A program made the position numbers and the translations under genes. DNA of 64,000 nt from Psammoneis japonica (lineage: Eukaryota), in assembly GCA_008632985.1 (NCBI GenBank), contig QPGO01000033.1, positions 310,001 through 374,000 on the forward strand, read 5' to 3'. The notes under the pieces were generated by a model. It saw only the letters and a program-made list of their open reading frames with translations. It was not told where the DNA came from and searched no databases. Positions 1 through 49,660 of the stretch are shown here, piece after piece; position 1 is the first letter of the stretch; every line of letters begins with the position of its first letter.

Positions 1-105
1 AGGACAGTTCTTTTTCACCTGCCCAACCTTGTCACATTTCCAGCATTTGATCTGCTTCTTCTTGCTTCTTGTTTTGCACAAAACTCACGCCTGCCCAAGC
101 AAGGC
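1..105 (-). mobile_element. Gag zinc-knuckle fragment (LTR retrotransposon remnant)
   Basis: Minus strand reads KQIKCWKCDKVGQVKKNCP, a degenerate CX2CX4HX4C. It resembles the knuckle at ~3055-3095. Confidence 0.65.
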
Positions 106-109
106 TCGT

Positions 110-1760
110 TGCTTGTCAGCATGCAAAGGAGCAGAACCCTCTTGAATGAACCCAAGTTCTCAAAGGACAGAATGAATGCACAAGACCCATTTGGCAGTGG
201 CACCAGCAGCACAGACCTTGGCTTCAGCAGAACTCACAGCAGTCACCACCTGTGTCTTGCAGCGATGCAAGGCAGCAGCACCACCAGCCAACATGAGGGC
301 ATGCCCAGCAGCGGGGTGCTGATTGCAAAGGGCAGCAGCTCCACATGTGACATCCAAGAAAGCATGGAGTTGAGTGAGAGTCAGAGGATGGGAGCTGGGG
401 CAAGGAATCTTCAAACTCAAGTTGCTCAAAAAGGAGCAGCAACGGCAATGTGTGATCCTTGGCAGGCTTCTTGCAGCTGATGCCCCAATGCTTCGTGCAA
501 CACAGATGCTGGGTGCAACACCTTTCAATGCCATGCAATGTGTCAAGGCTGGGTCAGAGGCAAACTTTGACAATGTGGCAATTGTGTGCCCAGTGTCAAG
601 GTGGCAGATGACATGTGCACCAAGCAATTCACCAAGCAGGTTGTGACACCCGACACCCAAAACCTTGTGCTTCTGCCAGCTCAGCATGACTGGGGGCGCC
701 TTTTGCAGGCCAACATCAGAGTGCAACTTGGAACCAAACTCAACAAGGAGAGGAGCAGCCTGGAAATCAGAGCCCAACTCATCTGCAACAGGTTTCAACC
801 CAGCAATGCAGCCATGACAAGCAACGGAAGTGTGGTCATTGCGCCGGTGGACATCCACACCATTGAACTCAGCACAGAGCCCCAAATGCTTCAAAGGCAT
901 TTCATCCTTGCCAGGGAGTCACAGTGGCTCACCAATCAAATTTTGAATCTTGATGGCAAATGATTCCTCCAGGCATGCAACTGAGAAGTCATCAACCTGT
1001 TGGAGGAGGAGAGCATGACACTTGCCATCAAAAGTCCCACAATGGGTGCACTTGTCATGAGCAGCACTCCAAAAAAGGAGTTTTGCATCTGCCAATGTTG
1101 TGCTGATGCGATTCTCCCACAGAGCACTGGACTCAGGGTGCCCCTGCAGAGCATGAAGGATGTCAGCAGTGCCGCAGATTGGCCCAGGTCAGTCTGGGCA
1201 CCAAAGTGGTCCTTGCACCATGTGGCATGGGCTTCATCTGCTTGGATGCAAACAGGGGCTGAGGGATGCAGGGAGTGGGCACACCCATTTCAGGCATTGC
1301 CAGAGTGGAGCCAGCAACTCAGAAACTAAGAGCACAAAAAACAGCCATTGAACAGGTTGTTCCATGCAAGAAGAATGGGCACACTGCAGGCAATGCAAAG
1401 CAGGAGCCGCTTGAGGAGATCCATCACAACAGCATTGAGAACAACGTGTGTCATCTGTCTTGATGTTGTGTTGCCAGTGGAGTTGCAATGCAACAGCACC
1501 TTGTGGATGGGGTGTTGGAGCACCAAACATTCCAAGTGCAGCTGTGAAAGTGATCAAGTTGCTTGAATTCAGCATTGTGCCAAAGGGGCCAAAATCTTGT
1601 GAGGTGCTGCAGGCAATTCCAAGTGAAGCCATCCAGCTCTTGTTCCTCTGGGTCACTGCAGACATGCAAGGGTGTGTTTTCAACTTGGGCGGTGCACTGT
1701 GAGGACAATTTGAGAGGTTCTCTGTGCATTTCTGTGAGACACACATTTTTGGCACCACTG
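110..1760 (-). mobile_element. Degenerate Ty1/copia (diatom CoDi-like) pol: reverse transcriptase + RNase H, frameshifted
   Basis: Minus-strand motifs in copia order: W..AEFKQLD, GMFGAP, CCDGSPQAAP, SSCMEQP, ALQGHPESSALWE (~1115-1152), LLLQQVDDF (QVDD at 999-988), LLGELL..VICHLD.G.TIATLSKF, then RNase H-like KTQVVTAVSSAEA. Confidence 0.9.
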
Positions 1761-3039
1761 ACAGCATTGAGCTCCTGTGTGGCAATGGAGCGTGACATCT
1801 GCAACACCAGCACTTGACTCACATCTCCAGATGTGCAAGGTGTTCTTGAAATGAAGCATGCTGTGTCATTGTTGGGGTTTTCAAGGTCAGAAGAGCAAAA
1901 CGTCATTGTTGCATTGCTGTCTGTGTGGGCTTCATTCTTGGCACAAAAAAGTTGGGTTGGCAACAACTTCTGCTTCACCAACACACCTGGTGTGCCACGT
2001 GTCATTAGCAGCATCTTCAATCTTCTCCAGCCCAGGTCAAATTCTTGCATCTCAGTTGACTGTGGCTTTCTCAATTCACACTCTGTCTCCATAAATTTGC
2101 ACCCACCATGAAAAAGATGCAACTTGTTCCTCCCAGCTGCTTGAGCCAAGCACTGTTGAACAACAAAGGCTCTGGAAGTGCATCATTGGCTGGCACCAGA
2201 TTGGGCCACACACAGACTCTCAAATTGTTGCCTTCATTCCACAAACAAACTGGGCATTCTTGTTGATGTCAAACAACCAAAGCTGTGCCTTGGCGAGCAA
2301 GGACAATGGTGACAGCTGTGGCTGCTTCAACATGGCTTCTTGCAGCAGTCATTTCCTGCATCTTCTCTGCCTTTTGAGCTTGTTTGCATGTTTGACTGGC
2401 CACGACAAGGGCATTCACCAGCCCAACACTTGACAGCTGCTTCAGCTGATTGAGCTCCTTGCATTTGATCATGAGCACACTTGCTCTCCCAGCAGCTTTT
2501 CTCATCTGGTCAGCACAGGATTTGAGCATCAGCAAGTCTTTTGAGAAGGCAGCCACAGCATTGATCAGCTGGAGTGTGAGATCATCTCATCAGATGGATG
2601 CAACAGCTGTGACTGTCCCTGAGGCACTGGCAGAGATTTTTCTTCACACTTGGATCCACTTGTGTGCGTGACAGCAACAGGGCAGCTGTTGCCTCTTGTG
2701 CACCTGCTCTGCACACAGCATCAATGTGAACAGCAGACAGAGAGCAAGTCGTTCCCAGCATCCAAGAACTTGAGTGCATTTGTGCAGCGCAAATTTCCAA
2801 AATGAGAGTGGCATTTCTAACATTCCTGACCTGAGCAGCATGCCACAATGCACTGGCCCCATCTGTGTGTGTCTTTCCTGCTGCCGCTTCTGCAGTGAAA
2901 GCACCCTGGTGTTCAAGTTTCATTTCTTGCCAAACAGCACACATTTGGTCTTGTTGGAAACCATGCTGCCCAGTGCTGCTGCTTTGACCACTCCACCAAT
3001 TCCCATGGCCTGCATCATCTGACTCTGCCAGCAAATGAT

Positions 3040-3480
3040 CATTGTCAAAACAAACCTTTTTTGCATGCCCAGCCTTGTCACATTTCCAGCATTGACTCTG
3101 CTTCTTCTCATTCTGTGCAACAAAACTTGCACCTTCAGGCTTCTTGATGGGCCAACACGGCCACACATGTGTCCAACACCTGTGTTGCCTCCTTGCCCAA
3201 ATTGGGGCAATTGTCAATCCCAGTGCAAACTGCCAGCGCACGTCTTTCAAGAAGTGCCAACATTCCTTGGCACCTTCCATTGGCAGTGCCACCAACAACT
3301 TGTTCTGTCTTTCTTCTGGGTGTCGTCCGCCGCGTCCTTGCTGAACCCAACTTCTTTCTTGGCAATTTCTTCTGGCATGAGTCTGTTGCAGGACCCTTCT
3401 CCACCATCTCAACAGTGCCCACATGAGCCAACTGCCCCTCTCCTTTGTCCTGACAAATGAGCACCAGCTGCCTCCAAGCC
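3040..3480 (-). mobile_element. Degenerate gag of an LTR retrotransposon
   Basis: LLVAL.MEGA...FLKDVR.QFALGIDNCP followed by the zinc knuckle CWKCDKAGHAKKVC. Frameshifted. Confidence 0.75.
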
Positions 3481-6400
3481 TCAGCAACCTCTGGACATTG
3501 TGAGGTGTGAGGGTGCACTCTCACTTGTTTGCATGTCAAACAGGATCAACTTAAGAGTTTTCAACAATGCCGCCATGCCCCACTCCTTTGCAACCATTGT
3601 CATGTCAACCAGGCTGCACACAGAACAACCAGGTGTCAGAGAAACAAACTGGTGTTGGAGGAAGCACGGACAGACTAAAAAGTGCTGGAGCTTCTCTTTC
3701 TTGCACATTCTGCTGCAAGACAAATGGGTGAAAGGCAGACAAAAGCTCTTTTGTGAGACATGCAGTTGATTGTGTGTGTTGCAGGTTCTCAAAGTGTGCG
3801 TCAAAGAAAAAAGATTGTGGCCAACAGGAATCATTCAGAATGTGTTGCAAGAGTCACAATTGGCATTTTGCATGGGGAAAAACACCAAATCGTGTGGAAA
3901 TGCACACCATGTCACACGAGAGGGTGATTGGAGCTGGTGACTTTTTGGGAACTCAATTGAAATGTCATCTGACCAAAGGCATTTTGACCCACATGGTAAA
4001 GAGCAACGCCTTTGGTCAGACATTTCAATTGATTTTCCAAGAAGTTGACATTTGAGTGCAGAAGGGCAGACAGATGGACAATGATCATTTCTGGCACTCT
4101 TCCACACAATTTCTACACAATGACTCTGAGAGCCACAATGATTCCTGTTGATGCCTTTTTTGGTGCAACCACTTGCATTTGAAGCAAGCCAGCAGCAAGT
4201 GCCACAGCACAGTGCTGGCCAATGGCCAGCAGCTTGACTCATCTTTTTTGGCTCCTGAGCACTTGTGTGCAGATCTTCCCCTCCAAACATTGTGAAAGCC
4301 CCCAGCTTGGCAGTGCCACCCAAGTGTTGCCTTTGGGGCATGTGAGTGGCTGGGGCTCTGGTCAATGGGCAGAAAGGGCACACCAAGCTGAGGTGGCTCC
4401 ATTGATGTGGCGCATGTGCAAGGTCACCTCATTTTTTTGTGGTCTTTCATTGTGAGCTCACCCCACACAAGTTGGCTGACAAGCCTGCTCCCTTTGAGTG
4501 GTTTGTTTTGGGTGTCTTTTCCTTCTTGGCTGGAAAATGGTGTGGCTGGCTCTCTTGAGTGACACAAGAAGCAGCTCTGGAAAAATGCAAAAGGCTGGCT
4601 GGCCACCAAAGCATGCGAGTGGCCAACACATTGAAAGCTGATGAAGATGCACTGGTGCTGGGGAAGGCATCTGGCATTGGAGAGTGGTGCCACGGCTTGC
4701 CAGCCAGTGTGCTTTTGGCCTCGCTGACCTCCAACTCACCACATGGCTTGCAAACATGTTTTTCAACTGGGCGCAGAAGCCAAGCAGCAAGCACAAGACC
4801 CACAACTCAACATGAGCTGCAAATGTGCAAATCCACCACATTTGTCAACAATCATCATCAGCACATTCTTTGCTGCAGCATTGTCTGCTGTCTGTCATGC
4901 AAAAACTGCCTTGCACCCCAATGTTCCAGCACATGAGCATTGCACACACAGTGTGTTGTCTCATGTCCAACAACCAATGGTTTGTTCACACTTTGTTTCT
5001 GCTGCACATGTTTTGGGTGTGTGTGAGTTTGAGGGGGGGTCTCTTGCATGCCATGACAATTTTGTGGCAAATGTGGGGATGATCCCCTTGACAGGTGATT
5101 GGAGCATGGGCAGCTGAGCAATTTTTTGGCCAGCACTCCACCAGCCATGCATGGCACAATTTTTCTGCAGAAACAGCACTGGTTGCATGATGGCACTCTC
5201 AACACACCAAATCATCTTTTGCAAGCAGGGCACCCACCACAAAATGTGCACATGGCTGTGTTTTGTTTTGACCTTCAAACAGGAGTGGTTGTCAAATTGT
5301 CAAAGCTTTGGCAAAAATCATCTGCTGTGTGTTGCAAAAAGTGATTTGTCATGATGGAGAACATTGGTTGCACAAAAACAACAACAATGTTGCAATGCTG
5401 ACGTGAGTCTTATTGGCATTGCAAAATGCCAAAATTTGGACAAAGAATCTGTGCTTTTGGTGTGGCGAAAGCTTGCTTGCAAGTGAGAAACCACACACAG
5501 AAATCACACAAATGTCTTTTTTCAGCATGATGCACTTGGTTTGCATGCAGCTGGAATTCATTGCTGCTGGGGTTGACACTTGCCACAGGACACCATCTGA
5601 GCAGCATGATGGCTGGCCGTGCATCAAAAAAGCACCTTGCTTCAATCACGAGGGCTTGGCGTTGTGGCTGCAAGTTTGCATGGCTTTTTTTCTGTTGGGG
5701 CAATTGCTGATTTGTTTGTTGCACTGAATGATTTTGCCATCAATCTTGTGCACAGAATTTTGTTGTGGGGGGCTGTGTCACACAGCAGCCTCCCACCCAC
5801 AGCCCCAATGCACATGTGTTTTTTCCACTTTCACATTTTTTGTGCACACTCCACTTCAACAAAAATGATGAGAACACAAACAAAGCAGAAATCCCTTGCA
5901 ACAGCCAGTTGAGCTGAAGCTTGTCTTTTGTTTCTGCTGGGCAGCAGCTTGCTGCACCAAGCCCCAGCACTGCAGCAGCATGCAAAATCACACCACTGCA
6001 CTGCCTGCCTTTTACCCTGCTCTTCTCACCCCAGCCCACACAGCACTGTGCCACACACCGCACATGCTTGCACCCCCTTTCCTTCACTCTTCCATGCCAC
6101 AATGTCAGCTGCACCTCTTTTTTTTCTCTGTGGTTGGTGTGCTGCTGCTGCCCCAATCAGAACCAGCTTTTTAACATGCTTGCACATTGAAAGCATCTGC
6201 CTTCTCAAAAGAGAGTTTGAGAGAAAAAATGAATGCAGCACAACAAAACACAAAGAACTGCACACACGCGCTGTGGGCTCTCACCTGAGTGGTGGAGCTT
6301 GGCCACCCACCCTGCCAAAGCTTGTCTTCATCTTGCCACTGCACACACACCTTGGTCACTCAAACTTGTTTGGACAAGCAACAGAAACAAAACAAATGCC

Positions 6401-7173
6401 CTGAGCTGAGCATCTTGAGAGAAACAATGAACAGGAAGCTTGACAAGGAACCATTTGAGAGGGTGCTCTCTTTTTGTGTGTGTTGCAACTCTTTTGTGAG
6501 AAAACACAAAATCATCACAACAGAAGACAACCAGCAGGGGGGCGGTCATCATCGGTGCTTGCAATGAAGGCTCAAAAACTTTGAGACAGAAACTTTGACC
6601 TGTTCTACAATGTGGAAATTCCTGCACTTAGTTTGGGTCACTTGACAGTTGCACACACCGAACTGCATGGTCTCACATGCCATGCAAGCTGCATTGGAAG
6701 GCATTCATTTGCATCAGTGTTGCCGCACACTGACACCCCACATCTGAAGTGTGCAGCAACATTGTTTGTTTCTGCCATCACAAAAATGCCAAAGATTTCT
6801 TGGATGGGATTGTGACGAAAGTGGAGCTGAGACCTCATGATTGGCAAGACACAGATTTCTTCTGAGTTTCCAGCTCACCAAAAAAGCTGTCACAAAGAGG
6901 AAACGGTGTGTCCCAAACACATGGCAGGAAACTGCCGGCTGTGGTCATGAGGGAGTGCTGCTAGCATGTACGATATCCAGAGGCCGCTCAGGGTGAATTG
7001 CTTGTTAATTGCTACCTCGAGATTTTGCCCCATGAACAAACAATTTTGGTCCTGATGGAGAGAAGGCTCGTGATTAGAGTGGGAACGAGAGTGCCAATGA
7101 CGTTGAGTTATTGGCTCGTAAAACACTAGCTAGAGTAAAACTTGTCGAGCTGAGTTAACCCTGAAAAGACATT

Positions 7174-10120
7174 CTACTTCTGCATTGAATTGCGTTCATC
7201 TTCGTGATACTTTATATCAAGCCTTTGCCCCCCAAAAGGGAAGCCGTCTGTGCGAGTAACATCGAATATTATTCCAGGGCGCTGAAATGACACATACCTA
7301 TACGAAGTGCAATTGCAAAAGAAAGCCAGAGACAGGTCAGGTAAATGAGGAAGAGTGGCAATGAACAAGAACGTTTAGCTAAACAAACCAGAAAGCAAAA
7401 CCCACACTTACATGTGCATATTATCTGGAGAGAAAGCCAATCCTGTTGTCTCGCCTATGTAAGACTCACTGTTAAACAATACGAATAGAAGCAGCAAGAG
7501 GCAGGTCAGTGAAAAAGACAGGCACAATAGATCGAAATGCATTCAGTGATTCTGTCGTACTCGTGTGACTCGAGGATAGTGTAAAGCTTCCCGTTTATAT
7601 CTCGCCCGTGAACTCCACAAGTACCCTTCTTACCCCCATCCTCACAAAAATATAGAATGGCGCTTTCGTCATCTCCTAGCAGTCTCGCGACTTGATCGGG
7701 ACCATTGTCAAAAGCGCCGGACTTCGTCGAAGACCTTTCAAACCTTTGTTCATCCAGATCCAAAATAAATAGCGACTTATCCTTTTTGCAAGTAAAGTAC
7801 AAAATTCCTTGCCTCACGTCGATGCCTTCGCAGTTCTGGGAATAGTTGAAGGCGCTTTCGCGCCCTTTATCAAGGTTTTCAGTCCAATAAAACGAGCCTT
7901 TGTCTTGGTCCGACTCGCGGGGCAAAAGCACGAGATATTGCAGTCTTGCTGTGCCAGTCTGGTTTGTATGCAATAAGTTACTGTAATCCGGGGGATCCGT
8001 TGCCAATGCTGTTTTAATTGCTTTCTGATCTGGTACGTACTTCACAACTGGTCCGTTGATCTCATCCGTCGTAACGAAAAACGACGGATTCCAAATGTCG
8101 CGGTTGTCATATGCTGCACTCTCATATTTGGCACCAGCTCCACCCAACAACGTTTGTCTCGCCACTCTTTTCCCTTTCGGGTCAACCTCCCAAACCTGAC
8201 CTCCTTCGTCTTCTTCACAAGTCAGAAATGAACCCCACCAAGTCTTGCCCCCTCCGCAGTTTCGCCGAGTCAATCCATCAACGATCTTTTCATAGCGAAC
8301 AACGTCGCCGTTGCTATTGAATGTTATGGCACCCACTCCGCCTATAGGGGAAGGAATACAAAATATTGAAAATTGAAAAGTCCGGGACGAGGTTTCCCTC
8401 ACAGTGTAGCGGAATAGATTCGTCAATGATACATACCATTCTTGGTGCTTTCGGCGTTCGAAACATAGATCCACCCGCCGCTCTCTTCGTCAGCAAACAC
8501 TGCCGCTCCGTCTGGGTCCTCATGCATGTCGACGTCCGATTCTCCGCCATTACCATATTGTACCTTTTGGTCTTTTATTGCAACTATCTTTGCCGTCAAT
8601 CCAGTCGAAAGTAAAAGTCCATTTTCGATCAACGATCTATCCCCCGGTATGTATGAAGCCTTGGGACTTATTTGATTGCTTTCACCGCCAATCTTGACAC
8701 AGTAGTCTATCCCAGAAATGTCGCCATTCCCACCAATGTTGCACCCATCGACCACTTCATCAGTCGTTCTAGAAACACACACGAGGCCTGGCTTACAGTT
8801 CTCGTCATTTCCTTCGCAGTTGCCTTCGCACCGTCTGCACCGAGACCACTCCTTGCACTTATTTTCTTTAATTCGAAGGGGCCGATTACGTACCGTGCTG
8901 ACTGGCTTGTTGAGTTGTTCGTTGGTTGGCGGTGAAGTTGATGTGATAGGCTTAGTCGTTGGTGAAGGTGTCGCCATTTTAGTAGGAGAAGTGGATCCTG
9001 GCTTGTTGAGTTGTTCGTTGGTTGGCGGTGAAGTTGATGTGATTGGCTTGGTCGTTGGTGAAGGTGTCGCCATTTTAGTAGAAGAAGTGGATGGTGGCAC
9101 CGTCACAACAACTGCAGTCGACACTGTTGTAGGCGTAGCTGTGGAATTTTGGGGTGGCTCCGTTGGTTTTGGTGGGACGACGCAATACCTTACTAATTCC
9201 ACACCTGTGCCCACACAACCGGGGATTTCGTCATTCGCGTTCTCTCTTTCATGACACTCGAGATTACCACGACAATCATCACTTTGTCTACAGGATCCTT
9301 GACATTCACCCAACGGGAAAGCTTTAGCTGGTTGCCCTCCAAAGCCTTGTACCACTAACATGTTCGGCTTCGTTGGTCTCGTACAAAAGTCACTGCCGAG
9401 GATCGCTTCTTCGGAAATGCTCCCTTGACATCCAGGGACTCTTTCATTTATTGGAGGGACACATACGAGCCCGAAGTCGCACTCGATGTCGCTTCTACAT
9501 GAGCCCTCGCAAAGCCCTAGAGGAAACAGCTCCGGATTGCTAGTAGAATTCCCAATGTAAACCACACTCACCAACTCCGTCGTAACTGGAGAGGTCGGTG
9601 TAGCTGTCGGTTCTTGTTGTGTTTCAGACGGAGCGCCAGTAAAAGCCAATGTCGGGGATGCTCGTGTCGGCATTGATGACGACAATGATGCTTGGGTTGG
9701 AGTTGATGATCGATCTTGTGATGAGGAGGGCGCTTCCGTCGAGGACGGCTTATCCGTGGAAGAGGGCACTTCCGTCGAGGACGGCTTTGCCACGAAAGAG
9801 GGTGCTTCCGTCGAGGACGGCCTTTCTGTGAAGATTCCCGTTGATGATGGAGCTTCAGTTGTTATGTTTCCTGTGGACGGAGCTTTTGTTTCTACTTTTT
9901 CGCCAAATGGTGTGATTGGCTCAGGAGCGGAAGTTGGCGGGACTGACGATGGTACTACTTCATCGGACGACGAACCCTTGAATGTGTACCATAGAACGCA
10001 AAAAGTCCCAGTAAAGAAGAAGATTAGAACGACATAAAGGGTATATCTTCTCTCAAACAAGAACTTTTTGACCGCAACTGTTCGTCGTTGCTTGCTGCTC
10101 GATTCTTGTTGTCCTGTCAT
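7174..10120 (-). CDS. Membrane-anchored PhoX-like (DUF839) alkaline phosphatase with Ser/Thr/Pro stalk and three frustulin-like Cys-rich repeats; about 4 exons
   Basis: N-terminal TM helix and S/T/P-rich stalk. Repeats CEGSC, CQGSC and CEGNC. PhoX-type motifs PDGAAVF, YVSNAE, NCGGGKTWWGSFLTCEE, ETTGLAFSPD and YVSFQ. GT-AG intron at 8436-8342 joins in frame; further introns near 7555-7472 and 7411-7298. Confidence 0.85.
8903..9082 (-). repeat. Intragenic tandem duplication (~93 bp x2) encoding KMATPSPTTKPITSTSPPTNEQLNKP
   Basis: Two near-identical copies visible in both DNA and protein. Additional PSSTEAPS-type repeats at ~9720-9830. Confidence 0.9.
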
Positions 10121-11919
10121 GGGGACGCTTCTCTGATAAGTTTACTGTAGCGTAAATGAGGGATACAAAACGCTGACCGTCAAATTACTCTAATACCGCC
10201 GCGTTGGTCGTGGCGTGACTTTCATGCGATTCGCCGGTGAGTGATTAACAAGGTCATCATGGATCAGGACTCCCGAAATTGTGAGACCAATTTGCACGCC
10301 ATAGGAGACATTAGTTGGGTCATCTTTCTCGAATCCACGATGACCTTTGATTGAACATCCTTCAGCTTCTTATGCTGATAACGTTGAATTTCATTTTTTT
10401 TGAAATTTTTAATCCTATTATGCCCCAGACATTTCACGGGCGTTTCACGTTGCCTCGGCAGAATGTTGGTGGAAACAAAGAGGAGAGAGGAAGATTGAAG
10501 AGAGGAAGAAAGAAAAGACAAAATGAAGAAGGAAGGGGGGATTGCTGTGGGGGAAAGAGCATGTTTGAGTTGTGCTCCAGCAGTGGACAAACAAAAGCTT
10601 TCAAAAGGGGGAGAAGTTTGCAGCTGACAAATCAACAAAGAAAAACTCTGCGAAACAAAAAAGGGCAGGCCGAGAGCAAGAAATAAATTCAACCAGATCT
10701 CACTGGCAATTCACCCTGTTGGTTTGTCAATGAAACCAAGCTTGACCTTCTTGACCCACATGAAAAATGAGCAGAACATTGGGGAGAAAGAGATGAATCC
10801 AACCTCGACATCACCAAAAAGACAAAAGGCCTCGTTGGCTCTGCAAAAAAAGATGGCACGCGGTGTTTCTCCTCTGGAGATGAGTTTCATTCCAGCAGGT
10901 GAGACACACACACACATGGAGGTAGGACATTCTTGCACCCATCCTTCTTTTGGAACCTGTGACCATGCATTTTGTGCCAGCAAATCTTGTTCTTGATGCT
11001 CTTTCCCCAGCAGCTGTTGTTTTTCATTGTGCTTCTTTCATTGAAATCCTGTCCGCTGGTTTGAAATGTGATGGCCATTGATTTTTTTGCTTGGAAAATG
11101 TGGACAACAACAAAAAAGTCTTCAGGAGGAGTTGATTTTTGGTGTGATGAGCAAATGATGGTTCAGCACATGTTGCTGTTTTTCAGGTGCATTTTGCATG
11201 TTGTGAGCCTTCTGAAGAGCACTTGTGTGCACGGTCTAACTTGGGATTTGGTGCATTTCCCTTGAAAGATGGCACAGAGCTAAGTCTCTGAGTCAATTGG
11301 AGTTGGCTCTGGATCTTTCTCCTTTGGCATCTCCAGTCCTGGTGGGCTGCTCTGCTCAGGGGAGGATGGTCATTGGCTCAGTTTTCTGTCACTCCAGCAT
11401 CCATTTCTCCTGCTCTTCCAGTCCCCAGTGAATTCTGGCTGTGCACAGTTGCTGTCTTTGCCCATGTGGGAGTTTTAGCCATTTGTGGATCTTACCTTGC
11501 ATGTTTCAGTTTTTGAAGTTGTGGGTTCTTCCTTGTTGTGCACATGTGCACAGCAGCAGGAGATGATCATGGTCTGCCAGTTGTTCGATTTCAAGGCACT
11601 TTTGGTTGAACCCTTGCCATTGATGGAGCTCTGATTGCCAACTTTGCTGGGCTGGTGTTAAAGTTTAGGCCCTTGCCTCATCATGCAGAGCTGCACAGCC
11701 TTCTTCCCTTTCTTTGGCTTCTTTTTTGGTTGATGGAATTTTGTGTTTTTGTGTGTTTTCTCGACCCAAACTGTGACAACTTGTTTTTGGTCAGAAATGC
11801 TTCTAACTTTCATTCCTTGCCCCCAACATCCAACAATTGGGGAGTCATCAGACAAAGACAGTGATTGATGTCATTGGTGTCATGTTTCAAACGTGCTTCT
11901 TGCACCCGCCGAGCGCTTG

Positions 11920-12125
11920 GGGGTGTCCTGAATGAGACATTCCTTGCAACAAATGACAAAGCTGTCAACAGCAGGACAGTTGGGCACTTCAGTTGATGTG
12001 CATTGGGTCAAGGGTTGTCAAAATGATGAAGTCCTTTGTGAGCATCTTTCCTCTCCAGCCAAACTGAGTGTTCAAGCTGACAAGTTGGTGAGCAGCCAGA
12101 TGCCAAAGTTTGCACCCCCGGGGGA
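11920..12125 (+). mobile_element. LINE RNase H fragment (copy 1)
   Basis: VDVHWVKGHQNDEVLCEHLSSPAKLSVQADKLV matches the RNase H C-terminal pattern WVKGHQ...N..AD.LA. Confidence 0.7.
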
Positions 12126-12442
12126 TGGCAGGTGGTGATGGTTCAGTTGTTCAATTTCAAGGCACTTTTGGTGAGACCCTTGCCATTCTTGACAAAGCTC
12201 TGACTGCTGATTGTGCTGGTCTGGTGTTTGGGTTCAGACCCTTGTCTCATCATGCAGAGTCATGCAGCCTTCTTTCCTTTCTTGGCTTCTTTTTTGACTG
12301 ATGGAATTTTGTGATTGGGTGTTTCCCCAAGAAGGCTTGGACTTGCACTGTGACAACTCATCTTTGGCCAGACATGTTTCTGACTTTCATGCCTTGCCTC
12401 AGCACCCCAAAGATGGGGAGTTGTCAGACAAGGATGACAGTG

Positions 12443-12465
12443 ATCATCATCATCATCATCATCAT
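12443..12465 (+). repeat. (CAT)n microsatellite; shorter copy at ~16748-16764
   Basis: Direct reading of the sequence. Confidence 0.9.
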
Positions 12466-12499
12466 GTTTGGCAAATGTGCTTGCACCACAGAGTGGAGG

Positions 12500-14160
12500 A
12501 GATGTCCTGAATGAGACATTCCTTTCCTTGCAGCAAATGACAGACCTGTCAACAGCAGGACAATCAGGGTCTTCAGTTGATGTGCATTGGGCCAAGGGCC
12601 ATCAAAACAATGAAATCCTTTGTGAGCATCTTTCCCCTCCAGCCAAACTGAGTGTTCAAGCTGACAAGTTGGTGAGCAGCCAGATGCCAAAGTTTGCACC
12701 TGGGGGATGCTCCATTGGCACGTTGCACATGCCTTCACTGCTCTGCAAACTTGGTCATCTAAGATCCATTGGCTGCATCAAAATGCAAGTTGGTGCTTCA
12801 GTTGTGTGAAGCCTCCAGTCTGGCCCTGTGGCAGTGTGTGAAAGAGAACAAGTGTGTGGCTGGTCAAATGAAATTCTTTTCAACTCAATTGATTGGTCTG
12901 CCTGCTCAAAATTGATGACCCACAGCATTTGCTGCAAAGTGAGCACAGTCAAGCATGTTCAAGATCTGCTGCCTGCAAACAAAATCATTTGCTCCTGTCA
13001 CAACCTCACTTGCCCTGACTGCTCCTGCATCCATGGCCAACATCCAATGGAGGATGTCAATCATGCACTTTTGGCACCCCCCAATGAAGCCAATGAGGTC
13101 CACTGTGAGTCTCTTCCCCTCCAGCCAAACTGAGTGTCCAAGCTGACAAATTGAGAAGTGGATGCCAAGGTTTGCACCTGGGGGATGCTCCATTGGCGTG
13201 CCTCACAAGCCTCACTGCTCTGCAAATTTGGTCATCCAAGACCCCTTGGTTGTGTCAAAATGCAAGTTGGTGCTTCAGTGTGAAGCTTCCAGTGCAGCCC
13301 TGTGACAGTGTGCAAAAGAGAAGTGTGGCTGGTCAGACAAAGTTTTTGACTCAATTGATTGTTCTGTTCACTTGAAGTTGATGTCCCCCAAAACATTTGC
13401 CGCAAGGTGAGCACAGCCAAGCTTGTTCAAGATCTGTTACCTGCAAACAAGATCATTTGCTCCTGTCACAACCTCACTTGCCCTGACTGCTCCTGCATCC
13501 ATGGTCAACATCCAATGGAGGACATCAATCATGCACCTTGGCACCCCCCCCAATGAAGCCTGGCACATGGAGTTTCTTCAAGGCTTGTGCAAGAAGCACA
13601 GCTGATGACGTTCACACTTTGCCATCCCCACACAACATCTTGCTCTTGCGCAGCCTTGAGTGCTGGCTTTGAGAGGAGATGCTCTGCTCTGACAATCTCC
13701 ATTGTGATGTTCTTGCCATGCTCAATTCTCAGGGCAGTGATGGTTGGCACCACATGTTCAGTGGACATTTTTCTTGTTCTTTTGAAATGAAACTCAGTGG
13801 CTGCATCTGCTGGCTGGCAGCTTGCATTCCACTCTCTTTTGACTGGCAATCAACAGCTGAGTTCTTGGGCCACTGTGATTGGCAGCTTCATTTGGTCTCA
13901 ATTGTGGGGCACTTTGTGGGGTTCACAGAACGACAACATTCATGGTGGAATGGCTCCAAAACAAGGAAGTCATTTCAACACAAGATGCTGAGGCAGAAGC
14001 CAAAGCAATTTGTTCCAGGGCTGACAACTGCTTTGCAAAGGACAGGCCTCATTTGTCAGATTCAGTTGGTGAGCACCTTGCTCATTTCATGCATTGATTG
14101 TGCATCTCTGGTGCACTGGCTGTGGCTGAACTTTTGTGCCAAGGTCAAGCATCTATGATG
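12500..14160 (+). mobile_element. Degenerate non-LTR retrotransposon ORF2 3' part (RNase H + C-terminal zinc-binding region), with internal duplication 12620-13100 / 13100-13560
   Basis: HWAKGHQ...ADKL; GWSNEILFNSIDW; KHVQDLLP...CPDC...ED.NH; SQ...GWHHMFSGHFS; IWSQLW..LWGSQNDNIHG. This motif order is typical of diatom LINE C-termini. Confidence 0.8.
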
Positions 14161-16799
14161 CTTGGTGATTTGCCAATGGAGACCAGTGTGCCATTGCAAG
14201 TTGTTTTGGCACCACATCACCCAGTGGCAATGCCAGTCATGGGCCATGGCCAGTTGTTGCATGCTCCTGCCACATGCTGTGCACTGGGGGTGTGGGCCGG
14301 CTTGTTGTCAGAGTTGCATGGTGGAAGTGCAGCAACACCTTTGCACCAAAACAGATTTTTGTTTTTTTTTTAAGGTGCATTTGAGAGCAACCATTTTTTG
14401 CCATTTTTTTTTTTCTAAATCTCTGCACTTTTCATTGTGTCAAGTGCTCACACCATTGAAAAATGAACGGTGTTTCAGCGTCATGTTCTTTTGCCCAAAA
14501 AGGGAAGCTGGTTTCACACATGTGTGCTGTTTGCACAGCAATTAGCTGCATCAAGATTGCCCTGTTTGTGGGAGCCTTCAGCAAGTTCCACAAGAGTGTG
14601 ATGCCACACCTGCTTGGAACAAAGCAAAATTGCTGTGCAACACTTGAGTGTGTTGCTCATGCACCACTTTGCAATCTTGGACCTGCTGCACTTCACACCC
14701 AGGTTTCTCAATGTCTTGGTGTGTGCACTCAAAGCTGATCACCAAGTCAACCTTTTGTTCACACCAACAAACTGTTTTGTGCTCACACTGGCTTGCCATG
14801 AAAAAAGAAGCATCATCAGCAACATCATAAAGTGCAGATGACCCACCACAAAAAATGCACCAATGCATCACAAAGACATGTGTTGTCTTCATCCAGTGTC
14901 AAGTCAACAGAGCCAAGTGTTGCAAAGAGCCCCGCACTTTGCAATCCGAGGAAAAGCAAAAAAAGAGGCACCACAAACTGTGGTCATGAGCAAAAAGCAA
15001 AAAAGCTTTTTTTGTGAGAAACTTTTTTGTGTGAGATCAACAACTTTTTGTTGTGAGCACCCATGAGGGCAGTGCCAGCAAAGTGGAGAGCAGTGCATGA
15101 CAGCATCAAAGCAAGAGTTGAAAAAGGCTTGACAATGATTGGCACACAGCAAGAACAGCAAGGGCAATCTGAGACAACACCTTTCCTCTCACACACACCA
15201 ACATGCCCTGGGCCTGCTGCGTCTTCTGACATGCACTTTGTTTGAGAGAATTTTCTCAAAGCACTGTGCACTGCAAACTGCAGGCTGCTGCAGCTTGTGG
15301 GAGAGGGGTTGGTGACTGGGCACACTTGTTTCTCATGCGTTGGTGCTGCATGGCAGCTGATGTGCTTTGTGCCATGAAAAACTTCACAGTTTCCTGCAAA
15401 CAGCACCCAGCTGCTCACTGCTCACTCCATGCCCACGCCAGTGTGTGGTGTGTGGTGTGTGTTCTTGCTTGTGGTGTGGTTGTTGGCACAGTTTTGACAA
15501 AGAGCATGGCAGAGCTCTGAGGTTGAGAGACCATGAGGCAAAGCATTTGGGGTTTGAATTTCACTGCTGAGAATGTTCCAAGAGTTGGCTTTCCCAATGG
15601 ATGGGTGGTCAGAGTGAGAGTCATCCACACTGTGCTGTGCTGCATGATGGCGCGGCATGAATGCAGCAGCACCGGTGTGGCAACTGCTTGCCACGATAAA
15701 TTTCAAGCCTTGTTTGAGGCAGCACGATTTTTTGTTTGTCTGCAATTCTGATTGACATTGAAATGTGACTTTCATCATTGAACAATGCACAAATGCTGTG
15801 TTTTAACACAAAATGAGTGTGACCACCAAAAAGATGCACATTTTGTTGACAGACTTTCCCCAACAAGATCTGTTGCCATTTTTCATTTTGCTTCATCTTT
15901 CCTCAGACATCTGTCTGCTGGTTTGAAAAGTGATGGTCCTCATTTTTGCTGCTTGGACAACAAAAGCAAAGTCTTCAGGAGCTGATTTTTGGTGTGATGA
16001 GAGAACGAAAGTGTGGGGCATGATGTTGCTGTTTTCGGGCACTCTCTCCTCTACTGCACCAACATGTTGTGAACCTTCTGAAATGCACTTTTGTGCACAA
16101 CACCCAACTTGGGATTTGTGGCACATTTCCCTCAAAAGATGGCACAGCTGAGTCCCTGCATCACTTGCAGTTGTCTCTGGATCTTTTTCCTTTGGCATCT
16201 CCAGCCTTGGTGGACACTGCTCAGGGGATGATGGTCATTGGCACCTCAGGTCTTTTGTCACTCCAGAAGCACCCATTTTTCCAACTCTTCCAGCCTCCAG
16301 TGAATTCTGTGCCTGGCTGCTGTGTTTGCCCAAGTGGGGGTCTTTGCCATTTGCTGATCTCACCTTGCACATTTCAGCTCTTTTTTTAAATTGTGGGTTC
16401 CTTGTGTTGTGTGCTCACATGCAACAGCAGGTGGTGATGGTGATGGTTCAGTTGTTCAATTTCAAGGCACTTTTGGTGAGACCCTTGCCATTCTCGATGA
16501 AGCTCTGACTGCTGATTGTGCTGGTCTGGTGTTTGGGTTCACACCCTTGTCTCATCATGCAGAGTCATGCAGCCTTCTTTCCTTTCTTGGTTTCTTTTTT
16601 GACTGATGGAATTTTGTGATTGGGTGTTTCCCCAAGAAGGCTTGGACTTGCACTGTGACAACTCATCTTTGGCCAGACATGTTTCTGACTTTCATGCCTT
16701 GCCTCAGCACCCCAAAGATGGGGAGTTGTCAGACAAGGATGACAGTGATCATCATCATCATCATGTTTTGCAAATGCACTTGCACCACAGAGTGGAGGA

Positions 16800-17600
16800 G
16801 ATGTCCTGAATGAGACATTCCTTTCCTTGCAGCAAATGACAGACCTGTCAACAGCAGGACAATCAGGGTCTTCAGTTGATGTGAATTGGGTGAAGGGCCA
16901 TCAAAACAATGAAATCCTTTGTGAGCATCTTTCCCCTCCAGCCAAACTGAGTGTTCACGCTGACAAGTTGGTGAGCAGCCAGATGCCAAAGTTTGCACCC
17001 GGGGGATGCTCCATTGGCATGTCGCACATGCCTTCACTGCTCTGCAAACTTGGTCATCTAAGATCCCTTGGTGGCTGCATCAAAATGCAAGTTGGTGCTT
17101 CAGTCGTGTGAAGCCTCCAGTCTGGCCCTGTGGCAGTGTGTGAAAGAGAACAAGTGTGTGGCTGGTCAAATGAAGTTTTCAACTCAATTGATTGGTCTGT
17201 CCACTCAAAATTGATGACCCACAGCATTTGCTGCAAAGTGAGCACAGTCAAGCGTGTTCAAGATCTGCTGCCTGCAAACAAGATCATTTGCTGTTGCAAC
17301 CCTGCTTGCCCCAACTGCTGCATCCACTGCCAATGTCCAATGGAGGACAGAAGAGAGACATCACACACTTTGGCGCCCCCTGCAATGAAGCTTGGCATCA
17401 GTGGCCTTGGGTGCTGGGTTTGAGATGATGTGCTCTGCTTGTCTGACAATCTTCATTGAGATGTTCTTGCTGTGTTCAATTCTTGTGAAAGTGCTGGTTG
17501 GCACCACACATTCAGTGGACGTTTTTCATCTTCTGGGAATGAAAATCAATGGCTGGTTGCATCTTCTGGTTGGTGGTTTGCACTTCACTCCCTTTTTGCT
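16800..17600 (+). mobile_element. Further degenerate copy of the LINE 3' region
   Basis: NWVKGHQ...ADKL, FNSIDW, DLLP...CPNC and GWHHTFSGRFS. Near-identical to 12500-12990 in its first half. Confidence 0.8.
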
Positions 17601-18169
17601 GGCAATCATTGGCTTCAGAGTGTGGTTGTTGATGCAAGACACACAAAAACATGGCTCGGTGCTTTTTGAGCATCAACATTCTTGCATGTGCTTGGCACTG
17701 CTGAGCACATGTGACATGTGAAAATGCATGGAAAACCTTGCAATTTGTCAAAAGGTTTCTCACCCAGAATGAAAACACATCTGGTGCTTGTTGTTGGAGG
17801 CAACTGCTGTGCTGCCATCTTTGCTGTCCATTCTTTGCACTGACATTGTTCAAAAAGAAGCCAGCCACAACAGAAGCACACCAACTTGCCAGCTTTTGCA
17901 CCATGCAATCAAACACAACAGTGTGAAAAGTGGAGGCTGCAGAGCTGCAATGTTTCACACAAGAACCGCCAGACATTGCTTGAAATGGGTCAGAGACAAT
18001 GCAACTGCAGGTTGCTGCTCTGAGCTTGGCACATGCAGCACCCTCAGCAGCAAGGGCAATTTGAGTTTTGTGAACTCGGTTCAGCCCATTTTGTTGCAGC
18101 ATGGGATGCTTTTGCTTTTGCTGCTCTGGTTGCCCCAGGTGTTGACCCATCATTCAAAGCGCAGCCAGC

Positions 18170-18765
18170 TCTCCAAAACTTTTTGCAAAGAGAGTTGCAA
18201 ATGGCTTGACAATGACTGACATGTGGCAACAGTGAGGGCAATTTGAGACAACACCTTTCCTCTTGCACACAACATGCCCTGCCTCTTCTGACATGCACTT
18301 TGGTTGAGGCAAGAATTTTCTCAAATCAGCGCACTCTTGCACTGCAAACAGGCGACTGCTGCAGCCTTGCGGGGGAGGTGTGAGCGATTGGACACAGTTG
18401 TTTCTCATGAATCCATGCTGCATGACAGCTTGTGTGCTTTGTGCCATGAAGAACATCAGCTTCCTGCAAATGGCACCCAGCTCACTCCACACCCCCGATG
18501 CCAGTGTGTGTGCGTGGTGTGAGTGTTCTTGCTGTGGCGTGGTGGCTGGTGCAGTTTTGGCAAAGAGCACGGCAGAGCTCTGAGGTTGAGAGACCACGAG
18601 GCAAAGCGTTTGGGTTTTAATTTCACTAAGAATGTTCCAAGAATTAGTTTCACAGTGGACGGGGGTGATCGGAGAGTCCGCATTGTGCTGCAAACAACGG
18701 CTTGCCACCGAGAATTTGAAACCTTGTTCGAGACGGCACGATCTTTTGTCTATCAACAACTCTGA
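18170..18765 (+). pseudogene. Eroded unknown ORF with nearly intact 3' end; more eroded paralog at ~15050-15751
   Basis: Frame ends ...GRALRLRDHEAKRLGFNFTKNVPRISF...FETLFETARSFVYQQL*. Upstream in-frame TGA stops. A homologous copy lies ~3 kb upstream. Confidence 0.5.
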
Positions 18766-18972
18766 TTAAAGTTAAAATAAGACTTTCATTTATTTAATAT
18801 TGCACGAATATTTTAATATAAAATGAATACGACACAATGCATTGTTTCGACATTTCGTCGGTTCTGTTTGAAATTTCTCGGCAACGGTCACAAACTAACG
18901 AAGGCCTCAATAATTTTCTCTTGGTCTTTCATCACAAATTCGTCTCGACAACAACCCGCACCACCTCTCACG

Positions 18973-19125
18973 ATGTCGACTCTCTCCAATTCAGCACCGA
19001 ATCTCACAAACAATGGTTCCACAACCAATGCTTCCGTTAAAAAGCAGCTATCGGCTCCCAGTATACGTCGACAGCCATTGGGGAGCTTGAACGTGAACGC
19101 ATCGAAAGGCGCACCATTGGCAACC
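18973..19125 (+). CDS. Possible first exon of an unknown protein with a D-box-like motif (RQPLGSLN)
   Basis: ATG at 18973, S/N-rich peptide, GTAAGT donor at 19126. Downstream exon not identified. Confidence 0.3.
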
Positions 19126-19566
19126 GTAAGTTCCGTGTGTCCTGTGTTCAAACGACTATTTTTACTGTTCTTCGAGTTTGCATGTTGTATTTTATGTCTC
19201 TGTTAAATGTTGGGTTCGCACGGCGATATTGAATTATCAACACTGAACTGTATTCAAAACGATGATATTTCTTCAAATGGTCAACGGATGCTATGTAGAC
19301 ATACGGTTGGTAATTTTTTTCATATCTTTCGAATTTTGAGTTCGATCTCGCCAACCACGGACAGTACAGGATTCCCACGGCATAGTTTCTACTATCGGAT
19401 TTTTGTACATTTCTTGCGCGGGAACGGGATTAGTTTTCCGTTCCACGAATCTTTCCCTCGCCAAATTTTTGAAGTGCTTCTTGATCGTGTTTGCACCTCT
19501 CCGCGTCTTTTTCCACTCACTTTCCCCATTTTGTTTCTCCCACCGATCGTGATACCTTTCATCAAA

Positions 19567-20052
19567 ATGACAACGTCCACGGCCCAAACCCTTCGCATAC
19601 TTTGGTGTTCCAACAATCGTGTTGCCGACGACTCTATATTATTGAAGAATACAAAGCCAAAGAAGAAGACGAGCAGCTCAAACGAGCCAGCAGTTTCGTC
19701 CGAGGTATCACTAGTAACAGTTTCAACCACGACCCCAGTGTCACTTGAAGAAGAGCCAGTCCCACAACGCGAATTATCCAGAAGCACACCAGACCTCTTT
19801 CGAGAGAACAATTATTCATCCTCATTACCAGATGAGTTGGAGGAGATGCTTACACTGAAGCGTGCAAGCCGAGTTTACGACAGCGACGATGAGGACGAAT
19901 CCCCCACCAAGCGTTTAAAGAGAGAAGTTGACGACGAAAGAGACGAGGGTAACGAGGAATCTAGACAATTTTCTCAATTGCTCGATTGGTGCGACCGTCT
20001 AGAGGACGATGATATTGACGGCTTCCGACTTGTTGTTCCATGGGTTGAATAA
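19567..20052 (+). CDS. Hypothetical acidic, low-complexity protein (161 aa)
   Basis: AAAATG start context, open frame, protein-like composition (LTLKRASRVYDSDDEDE). Confidence 0.6.
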   Translation: MTTSTAQTLRILWCSNNRVADDSILLKNTKPKKKTSSSNEPAVSSEVSLVTVSTTTPVSLEEEPVPQRELSRSTPDLFRENNYSSSLPDELEEMLTLKRASRVYDSDDEDESPTKRLKREVDDERDEGNEESRQFSQLLDWCDRLEDDDIDGFRLVVPWVE

Positions 20053-47599: not shown

Positions 47600-49660
47600 A
47601 GAGGGATATCGCGGCCGGCATTTTCAGTGTTAGACCGACTCAGAGGGACAGTACACCCAATTCCTGAGGGACACGACACGCATACAAGTGCCATACACAG
47701 ACACATAATCAATCGCACACAACACGCACAATTTCCAAGGGACACGAAACCCTCACAAAGTTTTACCAAGTCAATTTGCACGCAGCAAACTGCAGCAGCA
47801 CAATGATGCGAGCCGCCGGTGTCCCACTTTACGGCGTGATATCTCAATGATACTTTCACCGATTTTCCCGTTGCTTATTTCATTCTTAACATAAATAGTA
47901 CAATACATCCAATGACTTTGATTCCATTGTGTGTCATTGTGAATTATGGATTTCTGTTTTGTTTGAAACCATGCAGCAATTTCAAATTTGGAGAAGCGCG
48001 CACTAGGGAAAGCGTGTACGAAGGATGCAGGTTGTGCAGCATTTCGATTCCCAATGGTCGATCCGAAACTATTGGCAGTGTCACACCATCGTATGTCGTG
48101 TGACATGTGATAGAGCATATGATGCAGTAGTTAAAATTAAGACTCCTACAATGAATGCCAGTGGTGCAAACAGCAAGCTAATCTGCCGTCGATCCGAAAC
48201 TGCCAGTGGTGTCGCATGATAGAGCATGTTAGGTTGTTAAATTTGAGACTCTTACAATAAACACTAGTGATGCAAATAGCATGCTAATCTGCTGTCAATG
48301 TGACTGGAGTTTTTAAGCCGCCGCCCTCTTGCCCTCTTTCTCAATCTTGTTCATCATCGTTTGCAGTTTTTTCCAATGCCGAAACAACAGCTCCCACTTT
48401 GTTTTCCAATTTGGATTTTCCATCAATAACCTTCCTCTCCTCACTTGTGCTAGCTTTGAAGCTGCGAGTTGATGCTGCCTTCTTTTCATCAACCAGCTTG
48501 TTGCACAAGGGCACGGCTTTGTTGTGCTGCTCAACCAAATTAAAAATGTGCTTGAGAGACACGGATTTCAACATCTTGCAAGGCCTGTCCCACCAAGCCA
48601 TGTAGTTGTCATCATCCTTTGCTTGAGGACGATTGCTGCCATTGAGATACTCCTTCTCCTCACTTGTAAACAGCGTGCGCGGGCCCTTGCTTTTAGAGAT
48701 TTGTTGAGTTCATCATGCTCGGATTTTTTGTAAAGTGCTCCACGCCCCAACTTCTTCTTAAGCACCATGTGCACACCAGAATCACATTGTGCCTGCGACT
48801 TAGGCTTCCAATGAGTCCCCTTGCGAGCACCTTTGCGTTCAATCTTGTACTCCATCAAGAAAGTACAGAATTGCCTCATCAATTTGCTGCAGTTCGGCAC
48901 AGTGAGAGTCTCTCCACGCAGATGCTTTCGTTCCAACTGATGGACTGGTGGACATCCTGTTTTTTTGGCAAAAACGTTAAATGCTGCGACCGCCGTCTTG
49001 TAGCCATCTTCGGTTCGGTCTGCTTTGTCTTGCATTTCTGCGCAGGCTTGGAGCATCATGGATTCGTCTTCGCGCTCTTCTGCCTCACCCTCATTTGAAT
49101 CTTCCAAAAAGGAGGCCTCAAGCTCAGCAGCAAGTCGATTGATGTGGTCCACCTCACTCGCTTTTGCCTCGTCGCTCGGCTCGTCGCTGGACTTGTCCTT
49201 CTTGTATGGATTGTTATGATGCATGATGCGAGTAGAAGATTGTGCCTGCTGCAGTGGTTGCTGGTGGTTCCAACCCGTCCTGGGCCTGCGCAGTTGGAGC
49301 ATCTTTTTCATTGATGAGAGATGGCATTGTGGACAAATGATGCCGACAGCGTATGCCATACAAGTCCAATCGCAACGAATCGCAACAATGGCAATGAAAA
49401 CGGTAGACTCTAGCTCTAGCAGCCCTCTAGGCCACAGTGCAACAGCAGCAACGAGCGAGCTGCGCGGCGGTAGTGCGGTGGTCGGACCGTCTGTCGTCCG
49501 TCGTAGGGTGACCGGTCTGGTCGCCGGCTCCACCCGTCGATTTCCGGCCGATTTGCGAGGGACCCGAGGGACACCCTGTCCCTCGGGGGCGCGCTTCGCG
49601 CGTCCCTCCCGCTCCGCGGGACAAATGTCCCTCCAGGGACGCTCCGCGTCCCTCCAAAAA
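47600..49660 (-). mobile_element. Putative degenerate DNA element with GGGAC/GTCCC motifs at both ends and a truncated ORF (~49225-48570)
   Basis: GAGGGACA motifs at the left end and GGGAC palindromes at the right end. The ORF loosely resembles a tyrosine-recombinase N-terminal domain (T.DGY.TAV.AF..F; L.RQF.TFL; Q..SGV..VL). Reduced TA content. Confidence 0.4.
48058..48300 (+). repeat. Tandem duplication (~110-130 bp x2)
   Basis: GTCGATCCGAAACT and TGATAGAGCAT...GCTAATCTGC each occur twice. Confidence 0.85.

Follow-up and report, generated by a model that had tools for sequence, protein, structure and literature searches.

Two blocks of chromosomal DNA in the diatom Psammoneis japonica have lost nearly all of their TpA steps and most of their CpG steps, both of which have been converted into TpG and CpA. 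All of our results come from one 64-kb window (the whole stretch of DNA analysed here, positions 310,001 to 374,000 of contig QPGO01000033.1 in assembly GCA_008632985.1), in which the blocks occupy positions 1-6960 and 10420-18617 (Table 1). Two context-specific, strand-symmetric transition processes, limited to these domains, erase TpA and CpG in the blocks. We consider it likely that the blocks are old degenerate DNA shaped by CpG decay together with a TpA hypermutation of the type recently described in the alga Bigelowiella natans (Mettrop et al., bioRxiv 10.64898/2026.01.13.699255), an ADAT2/TadA-like deaminase being the likeliest agent.

The blocks differ from the rest of the window in their dinucleotides and not in their GC content. 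We placed the borders by listing every TA and CG after a 1-kb dinucleotide scan, and expected counts were derived from the dinucleotide frequencies in the remainder of the window. The two blocks together span 15,157 bp and hold 34 TA (~625 expected), 120 CG (~840 expected), 1784 TG and 1739 CA, with 95% of the TA lost compared with 86% of the CG. The observed/expected (o/e) ratios in the blocks are TA 0.03, CG 0.14, TG 1.81, CA 1.92, AA 1.24, TT 1.27 and AT 0.78, versus TA 0.60, CG 0.98, TG 1.12 and CA 1.17 in the control region 18831-64000, and the GC content is flat (0.481 in the blocks, 0.476 in the control). An earlier note on this DNA had reported a few dozen TA and few CG in ~15 kb, abundant TG and CA, and AA, TT and AT remaining abundant with no general GC shift, all of which our counts bear out. 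It had also placed two blocks at ~1-6950 and ~10470-18700; the two blocks stand and their coordinates are refined here. The number of TA+CG per 300 bp has a mean of 2.9 and a 99th percentile of 7 in the blocks, versus a mean of 28.9 and a 1st percentile of 16 in the control, and the two distributions are disjoint. The depletion ends sharply at 6960, 10420 and 18617 beside genes of ordinary composition, and block 1 is cut by the left end of the window, continuing past position 1. No further TA/CG-poor island was found in 300-bp windows across the other 45 kb. The mildest outlier beyond the blocks is 48001-49000 (TA 0.46, CG 0.65, TG 1.50, CA 1.42), which stays below the block criteria in 300-bp windows and contains a short 90-bp repeat at 48104-48299.

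A simple conversion of both dinucleotides reproduces most of this composition. We turned all TA and CG of the control into TG or CA at 50:50 in a forward model, which gives TG 1.90 and CA 1.95 compared with the observed 1.81 and 1.92. The model fits the blocks over 16 dinucleotides with r=0.974, versus 0.701 for the unconverted control. CpG decay by itself would not produce enough TG and CA to match the blocks.

The blocks and their borders are reproduced by a public sequencing run (X1), which contains 95% of the sampled words at a word depth of ~63. Over 4125-8931 and 17224-20000, contigs from X1 agree with the window at every base and need no gap. A third contig, over 9052-12082, likewise has no base difference; its only gap is a deletion of 1 base at 10394, shortly before block 2 begins. 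All three borders (6960, 10420 and 18617) are bridged without a base difference, which excludes a polishing artefact confined to the assembly, and the genes that flank the blocks in these contigs are normal. Isolated letter differences inside the blocks occur at two positions only, 15651 and 17105, both C in the window and T in the run, at CpG and at full depth. Since X1, the best DNA match, and the assembly may share one sample, the support from this run is not independent. Even with this caveat, we find it hardly credible that the blocks are an artefact of assembly, polishing or base calling at modified bases; a strand-dependent misreading of a modified base would branch the contigs, and no branching is seen.

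The pattern is mutational and not native. The repeat copy at the right end of block 2 (18186-18826) is homologous to 15107-15816, and since the homology continues to 18826, the tail of this copy lies outside the depleted domain and can serve as a proxy for the ancestral state. Where the tail has TA, its homolog at 15601-15816 has TG at seven sites and CA at four; where it has CG, the homolog has TG at two sites and CA at three. With the strands folded, the transitions per purine in this tail test are 12/27 for TA, 8/20 for CG, 6/47 for AA, 2/27 for GA, 1/28 for CA, 3/29 for TG, 0/13 for GG and 6/17 for AG. The A in TA is thus hit far more often than the A in AA, CA and GA taken together (12/27 vs 9/102, Fisher p=6e-5), as expected from the second, context-specific A-to-G process at TpA that the earlier note had proposed. 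As one hit destroys a TA, 12/27 implies that about nine in ten TA steps were converted, and we estimate that the rate per A in TpA is roughly 10-25 times, and at least ~10 times, that in other A contexts.

An alternative hypothesis could be that the DNA was acquired or evolved TA/CG-poor, either as foreign DNA or through selection against UpA and CpG at the RNA level. Joint suppression of CpG and UpA with an excess of UpG and CpA is described for RNA viruses and cytoplasmic RNAs in the available part of one study (PMC3829696), and the young copies in block 2 (96% identity) are both TA-free already. However, the homologous tail retains TA and CG, and a TA o/e of 0.03 far exceeds any selected bias. 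The frames in the blocks are open for at most 312 codons, with frequent TGA (327+449) and Tyr at 0.04-0.05% of the six-frame residues, and double-step switches prevail between the copies (see below). We therefore regard a native origin of the composition as very improbable. The earlier note had itself listed a natively TA-free family, equal rates in all contexts and reads contradicting the blocks as signs that it was wrong; what we found is a tail that keeps TA and CG, rates that differ by context (p=6e-5) and a run that agrees with the blocks.

The comparison of the block copies with each other indicates that TA and CG do not persist in this DNA. CA<>TG accounts for 81/243 of the adjacent double differences between paralogs, and the next class has 11. 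In the columns with pyrimidine-purine (YpR) steps, the ratio of two-step patterns (TG vs CA) to one-step patterns (TA or CG vs TG/CA) is 42:17, whereas it is 5:94 in the purine-pyrimidine (RpY) control columns (AT, AC, GT and GC). This excess of double steps at YpR implies that the palindromic intermediates TA and CG are short-lived in the block DNA. CG stands opposite TG or CA in 34 dinucleotide columns from eight paralog pairs (23 CG/TG and 11 CA/CG).

The conversion was gradual or recurrent and ran alongside continued duplication of the DNA. Among converted sites, the share that settled independently after duplication rises with the divergence of the pair, from ~0.17 in the 96% pair through 0.35-0.59 in the 81-86% pairs to 0.70-0.74 in the 78-80% pairs; this estimate uses a scaling factor of 0.4, an assumption drawn from the forward-model data. 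The old pair 11001-12127 and 15854-17008 differs by 27 TG/CA double switches out of 193 shared YpR steps. The young pair 12133-13054 and 16438-17347 has only seven such switches, making up 14/27 of its transitions, so that most converted sites had settled before that duplication. With a third copy as outgroup, about ten full TG<>CA switches are found among the ~45 changes dividing this pair.

Both strands are affected alike, with no sign of processive action. TG and CA are nearly equal in number, and a runs test on their order along the blocks shows it to be random (z=-0.8 and -0.2), with no long same-strand tracts of the kind seen in clusters from repeat-induced point mutation (RIP) or APOBEC. 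The lack of both strand bias and tracts speaks for an action on chromosomal DNA and against the editing of a retroelement at the RNA or cDNA stage. The TpA process would share with A-to-I RNA editing of the ADAR/ADAT-derived kind and with APOBEC a deaminase chemistry, a T or U 5' of the adenine and a use against repeats or viruses, as these are described in the available text of the B. natans preprint. However, editing of RNA or cDNA marks one strand and is asymmetric, whereas here TG and CA (1784 vs 1739) are randomly interleaved. We accordingly rejected RNA-level retroelement editing of the ADAR/APOBEC type.

We also rejected RIP of the fungal type, whose direction is the opposite one. Like RIP through the RID and DIM-2 pathways, the process in the blocks makes context-specific transitions in confined DNA with sharp borders and ruins the reading frames. 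But RIP consists of C:G>T:A changes mainly at CpA, depends on duplicated sequence and increases both TpA and AT content, while here TpA is removed and GC is flat. RIP is called at TpA/ApT above ~0.89 and (CpA+TpG)/(ApC+GpT) below ~1.03; the blocks give inverted values of 0.04-0.05 and 2.01-2.06, and the control gives 0.65 and 1.22. The opposition to RIP had been stated in the earlier note, together with the conversion of TpA and CpG into TpG and CpA, and both hold. Its description of the process as targeted to repeats is not borne out by the word depth, most of block 1 being at single-copy level. Block 2 is internally duplicated, and the tail 18618-18826, although duplicated, escaped. Relatives of RID, the DNMT4 enzymes, are present in diatoms, with a function given as unknown in the available text of one study (PMC9998398).

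Ordinary deamination of 5-methylcytosine (5mC), acting on silent DNA that is methylated, would account for the CpG half of the pattern. Diatom repeats are known to carry CpG methylation, and the loss of CG to TG and CA in the blocks (o/e 0.14) is what such decay leaves in methylated repeats. Methylation of transposable elements is mentioned for four diatoms in a text whose available part does not give the context (PMC9998398). Decay of 5mC cannot remove TpA, and the TA loss here is both stronger and farther-reaching than the CG loss. At the right border the TA loss outreaches the CpG loss by ~290 bp, and the zone 18330-18617, without TA but with CG, shows that the TpA and CpG processes are spatially separable.

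The bases around the surviving sites suggest what the TpA process prefers. Residual TA is found in YTAR (Y, pyrimidine; R, purine) in 20/34 cases in the blocks versus 333/1861 in the control (p=1.7e-7), and the base after the A, counted on either strand, is A in 35, G in 19, T in 6 and C in 8 cases. TAY thus seems to be preferred over TAR as a target. Among the residual CG, TCG makes up 19% versus 31% in the control and GCG 31% versus 23% (p=0.0015).

This shortage of TCG could also come from a single dual-activity deaminase of the ADAT2/TadA type with a preference for a 5' T, which would attack A in TpA and C in (T)CpG in the same silent domains. Both depletions do share the same blocks, and amphioxus ADAT2 expressed in Escherichia coli deaminates DNA at TCG and at A, as given in the available part of the study (PMC10354150). 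We nevertheless consider one enzyme for both halves unlikely. The zone 18330-18617 has lost its TA and kept 10 of the ~16 expected CG, CG is lost in all NCG contexts (o/e 0.14), CpG methylation of diatom repeats would alone explain the CG half, and almost no C>T is present in the B. natans spectrum as far as the preprint text is available.

A different way of tying the two losses together is collateral error-prone repair, in which 5mC deamination or base excision in methylated DNA would recruit a pol-eta-like polymerase that makes A>G errors at TpA. The hotspot of pol eta is the WA motif (W, A or T), and the TpA loss co-locates with CpG decay. But AA is not depleted (o/e 1.24), A>G at AA was seen in 6/47 cases against 12/27 at TA, and the TA loss exceeds the CG loss (95% vs 86%) and extends past it. 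In B. natans all A:T>G:C changes in the hypermutable regions fall on TpA, according to the available preprint text. Repair of this kind is a poor candidate, less probable than a dual deaminase. The earlier note had put forward both a pol-eta-like polymerase and a DNA adenine deaminase for the TpA process; a TadA-like deaminase fits the blocks, while the polymerase fits poorly.

The closest match to the TpA half is the hypermutation reported in B. natans, for which we draw on the available preprint text (bioRxiv 10.64898/2026.01.13.699255). In mutation-accumulation lines of this alga, 231/302 nuclear point mutations fell within two integrated silent viral regions, 230/231 of these were A>G or T>C, all on TpA, and the rate in the inserts was ~6e-7 per site per generation, ~1000-fold over background. 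The B. natans genome has 124 clusters of TpA-poor, CpA+TpG-rich windows, enriched for unannotated and for transposon- or virus-like genes, and its authors proposed a DNA adenine deaminase of the ADAT2 type. The P. japonica blocks likewise show A>G and T>C at TpA, yielding TpG or CpA on either strand, inside discrete regions adjoining normal DNA, with long-term depletion of TpA and gain of CpA and TpG in clusters. All 14 of the 1-kb windows that lie fully within the blocks (TA 0.00-0.10, TG 1.48-2.00, CA 1.64-2.21) satisfy the cut-offs of the preprint (Rho TpA <=0.43, Rho CpA+TpG >=1.52). By this analogy we infer that the TpA loss in the blocks and the TpA-only hypermutation of B. natans are processes of one kind. 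The earlier note, which knew of no description of such a system, is superseded in this respect by the preprint. The host differs, B. natans being a chlorarachniophyte and thus rhizarian, and P. japonica a diatom and thus a stramenopile. The TAY-over-TAR preference and the interleaving with duplications are seen here; the available part of the preprint makes no mention of diatoms or flanking bases.

Our preferred explanation would therefore have two steps. TpA would be turned into TpG or CpA (A:T>G:C) on both strands of silent or foreign DNA by a host-directed activity, and CpG would be turned into the same products by 5mC deamination. At the TpA step, adenine in the DNA would most likely be deaminated to inosine by an enzyme of the ADAT2/TadA type that needs a 5' T and also seems to favour a pyrimidine after the A. 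Amphioxus ADAT2/3 is a natural tRNA adenosine deaminase that acts on A and C in DNA; its contexts in E. coli are GAA for A and TCG for C, not TpA, and no link to silent chromatin is reported in the available text (PMC10354150).

Alternatively, the target could be the T. A TET/JBP-type enzyme might oxidise thymine at TpA to 5-hydroxymethyluracil or 5-formyluracil, which would mispair with G and give T>C. TpA is palindromic, so that T>C on one strand equals A>G on the other, and the flank rule suits either base, being symmetric (RTA equals TAY). In some protists modified T is concentrated at TpA, and 5-formyluracil is mutagenic. Nothing observed here points to such an enzyme or base, and the sole experimental precedent reads its data as adenine deamination, likewise unproven in the preprint text available. 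We rate the thymine route as unlikely, on a par with the dual deaminase.

Several points weigh against CpG decay plus adenine deamination at TpA as the explanation of the blocks. The chemistry is read from the footprint, and T>C through an oxidised thymine would leave an identical one. The polarity of the changes comes from one tail of ~200 bp, with 27 A in TA, whose alignment has 67% identity and lacks a true outgroup; AG>AA changes (6/17) in it are unexplained, and all of the evidence comes from a single window. The blocks also deviate from the conversion model, with low GA/TC (0.89-0.91), high AA/TT (1.24-1.27) and high GC (1.31), which may reflect ancestral composition or a further process such as C>T at TpC. 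The precedent is a single preprint on a distant lineage. In the available text, the TpA depletion in its nucleocytoplasmic large DNA virus insert is only partial (3.3% vs 6.0%) and CpG is not treated, while the depletion here is close to saturation (o/e 0.03) and is accompanied by CpG decay. Finally, no family or homolog of the block DNA was found in the searches described below.

The finding is a saturated further instance, in a diatom, of a recently described TpA hypermutation and is not categorically new. Our search of the literature on diatoms, transposons, dinucleotides, RIP and hypermutation found no report of TpA-targeted chromosomal hypermutation other than the B. natans preprint, i.e. 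targeted A:T>G:C hypermutation of chromosomal DNA was reported once, in 2026, for one rhizarian alga. A footprint in a diatom would mean that the process is spread across distant lineages of the stramenopile-alveolate-rhizarian group or arose more than once, and it would place the process in an ecologically important group for which genetic tools exist. The constraints added here are borders within tens of bases, the TAY preference and the independence from CpG decay. The absence of Tyr codons and of detectable protein families explains why such DNA escapes annotation. The low-TpA, high-CpA+TpG signature offers a simple genome-wide screen, which could be related to the deaminase gene content across diatoms, and the enzyme, if found, would be a natural DNA adenine editor.

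We speculate, tentatively, that diatoms and chlorarachniophytes might share an ancient DNA adenine-editing defence derived from ADAT2/TadA and targeted to chromatin domains. Such a defence would read T-A-Y, an echo of the U33-A34 geometry of the anticodon loop, act on both strands of silent or foreign DNA independently of cytosine methylation, and run to saturation in diatoms. If so, every Tyr codon and every TA-containing signal would be erased in diatom targets, and A-to-I editing of DNA would be a widespread form of eukaryotic genome immunity, a mirror image of fungal RIP.

Table 1. Positions and properties of the features in the window
Feature	Position	Strand	Observation
Block 1, TA/CG-depleted and TG/CA-enriched degenerate DNA	1..6960	.	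13 TA vs 287 expected, 58 CG vs 386 expected
Block 2, TA/CG-depleted, with nested and tandem duplications of differing age	10420..18617	.	21 TA vs 338 expected, 62 CG vs 454 expected
Border zone, TA lost, CpG near normal	18330..18617	.	0 TA vs 11.9 expected (P=7e-6); 10 CG vs 16.0 expected (P=0.08)
Tail of repeat copy 2, outside the depleted domain, ancestral-state proxy	18618..18826	+	TA and CG dense from 18618
In-block homolog of the unmutated tail 18618-18826	15601..15816	+	TG/CA where the tail has TA or CG
Old paralog of 15854-17008	11001..12127	+	78.5% identity; 87% in purine/pyrimidine code
Young paralog of 16438-17347	12133..13054	+	96% identity; 27 transitions, 7 transversions
CX2CX4HX4C zinc-knuckle-like string, gag-like	3056..3108	-	Repeat D19; degenerate copy at 10-62
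Unaffected interval, ordinary spliced gene, internal control	6961..10419	-	TA o/e 0.51-0.70, CG 0.93-1.08

The block DNA is probably derived from a transposon or virus and is too degraded to name. No Pfam family scored above its cut-off in the 20 longest open reading frames (ORFs), in the 148 ORFs with 62 aa or more, or in any of 18 read-through translations (six frames, both blocks, X at stops). The only mobile-element name among the 148 ORFs is Transpos_assoc, which is below threshold (E=0.028, 15 bits vs a cut-off of 27.7). A search of the longest open frame, the 312-aa ORF at 2585-3520(-), against 5.8 billion proteins gave 2057 candidates that shared words with it, of which none scored, and a search against 1.84 billion representative proteins gave 0 matches. 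The stops are nearly all TGA, at 327 and 449 over both strands, versus 20 TAA+TAG in block 1 and 36 in block 2, and Tyr is nearly absent from the six-frame residues.

The Copia motifs with Tyr-to-His/Cys changes that the earlier note had read in the blocks were not recovered, no protein family being found in these ORFs and translations. A Ty1/Copia long terminal repeat (LTR) retrotransposon is not supported, the families of protease, integrase, reverse transcriptase and RNase H being found 0 times in the 148 ORFs and 18 read-through translations. Block 1 has no LTR-like pair, and the direct repeats of block 2 are nested or tandem duplications. The CCHC-like string in block 1 is a weak hint of a retroelement gag. 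Its pattern CX2CX4HX4C matches once in 30,306 six-frame block residues and twice by chance in 90,336 control residues, with no detection by Pfam, and we rejected it as proof of a retroelement since it is not significant against the control matches.

The term repeat blocks, as used in the earlier note, suits block 2, whose internal paralogs have 73-96% identity. It suits block 1 only in part: the single internal repeat there is of 53 nt, and the block is mostly single-copy by word depth, with multi-copy parts at 1-667 and 3336-4669 (summed word depth 211-616 versus ~63 elsewhere). These parts occur in several other genomic arrangements, with X1 joints from 3025 back to 1 and from 64 to 3346 and many loose ends, whose visible sequences are nearly TA-free. 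A self-BLAST of the window in purine/pyrimidine-collapsed code gave no extra paralogs and no unmutated copy elsewhere in it, and a 40-nt purine/pyrimidine-degenerate pattern from the conserved repeat core had 0 matches in metagenome_contigs. In block 2, one X1 contig (depth 96) over 16438-16965 carries six letter differences and a 6-bp insertion, ATCATC, at 16747 in a His-codon-like run of CAT/CAC; it is probably a near-identical copy elsewhere in the genome.

The interval between the blocks holds a spliced gene of ordinary composition. Contigs of a second run (X2) skip 7294-7409, 7468-7561 and 8340-8436. These segments have CT..AC ends and so correspond to GT..AG introns of the minus strand. 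X2 thus behaves like an RNA library, and its joints outline a three-intron minus-strand gene within 7100-10270. X2 has no cover over the blocks, and we did not use this as evidence of silence. One ORF of the gene has a weak PhoX match (E=1e-5). Another, of 572 aa, has no Pfam family and no usable match in a protein atlas search, and contains a 96-bp perfect-phase tandem duplication at 8902-9093 (95-96% identity). Elsewhere in the window, a 922-aa thioredoxin-domain ORF (three thioredoxin stretches) contains an internal duplication, 23263-23739 and 23902-24366, at 77% identity; its composition is ordinary, so that a duplication is not by itself enough to bring on the depletion. The window also holds an Rpn13 ORF that has no near-identical protein in the collection searched; its best matches, at 45-57% identity, carry the labels Synedra-, Thalassio-, Seminavis and Cylindrotheca and identify the host as a diatom.

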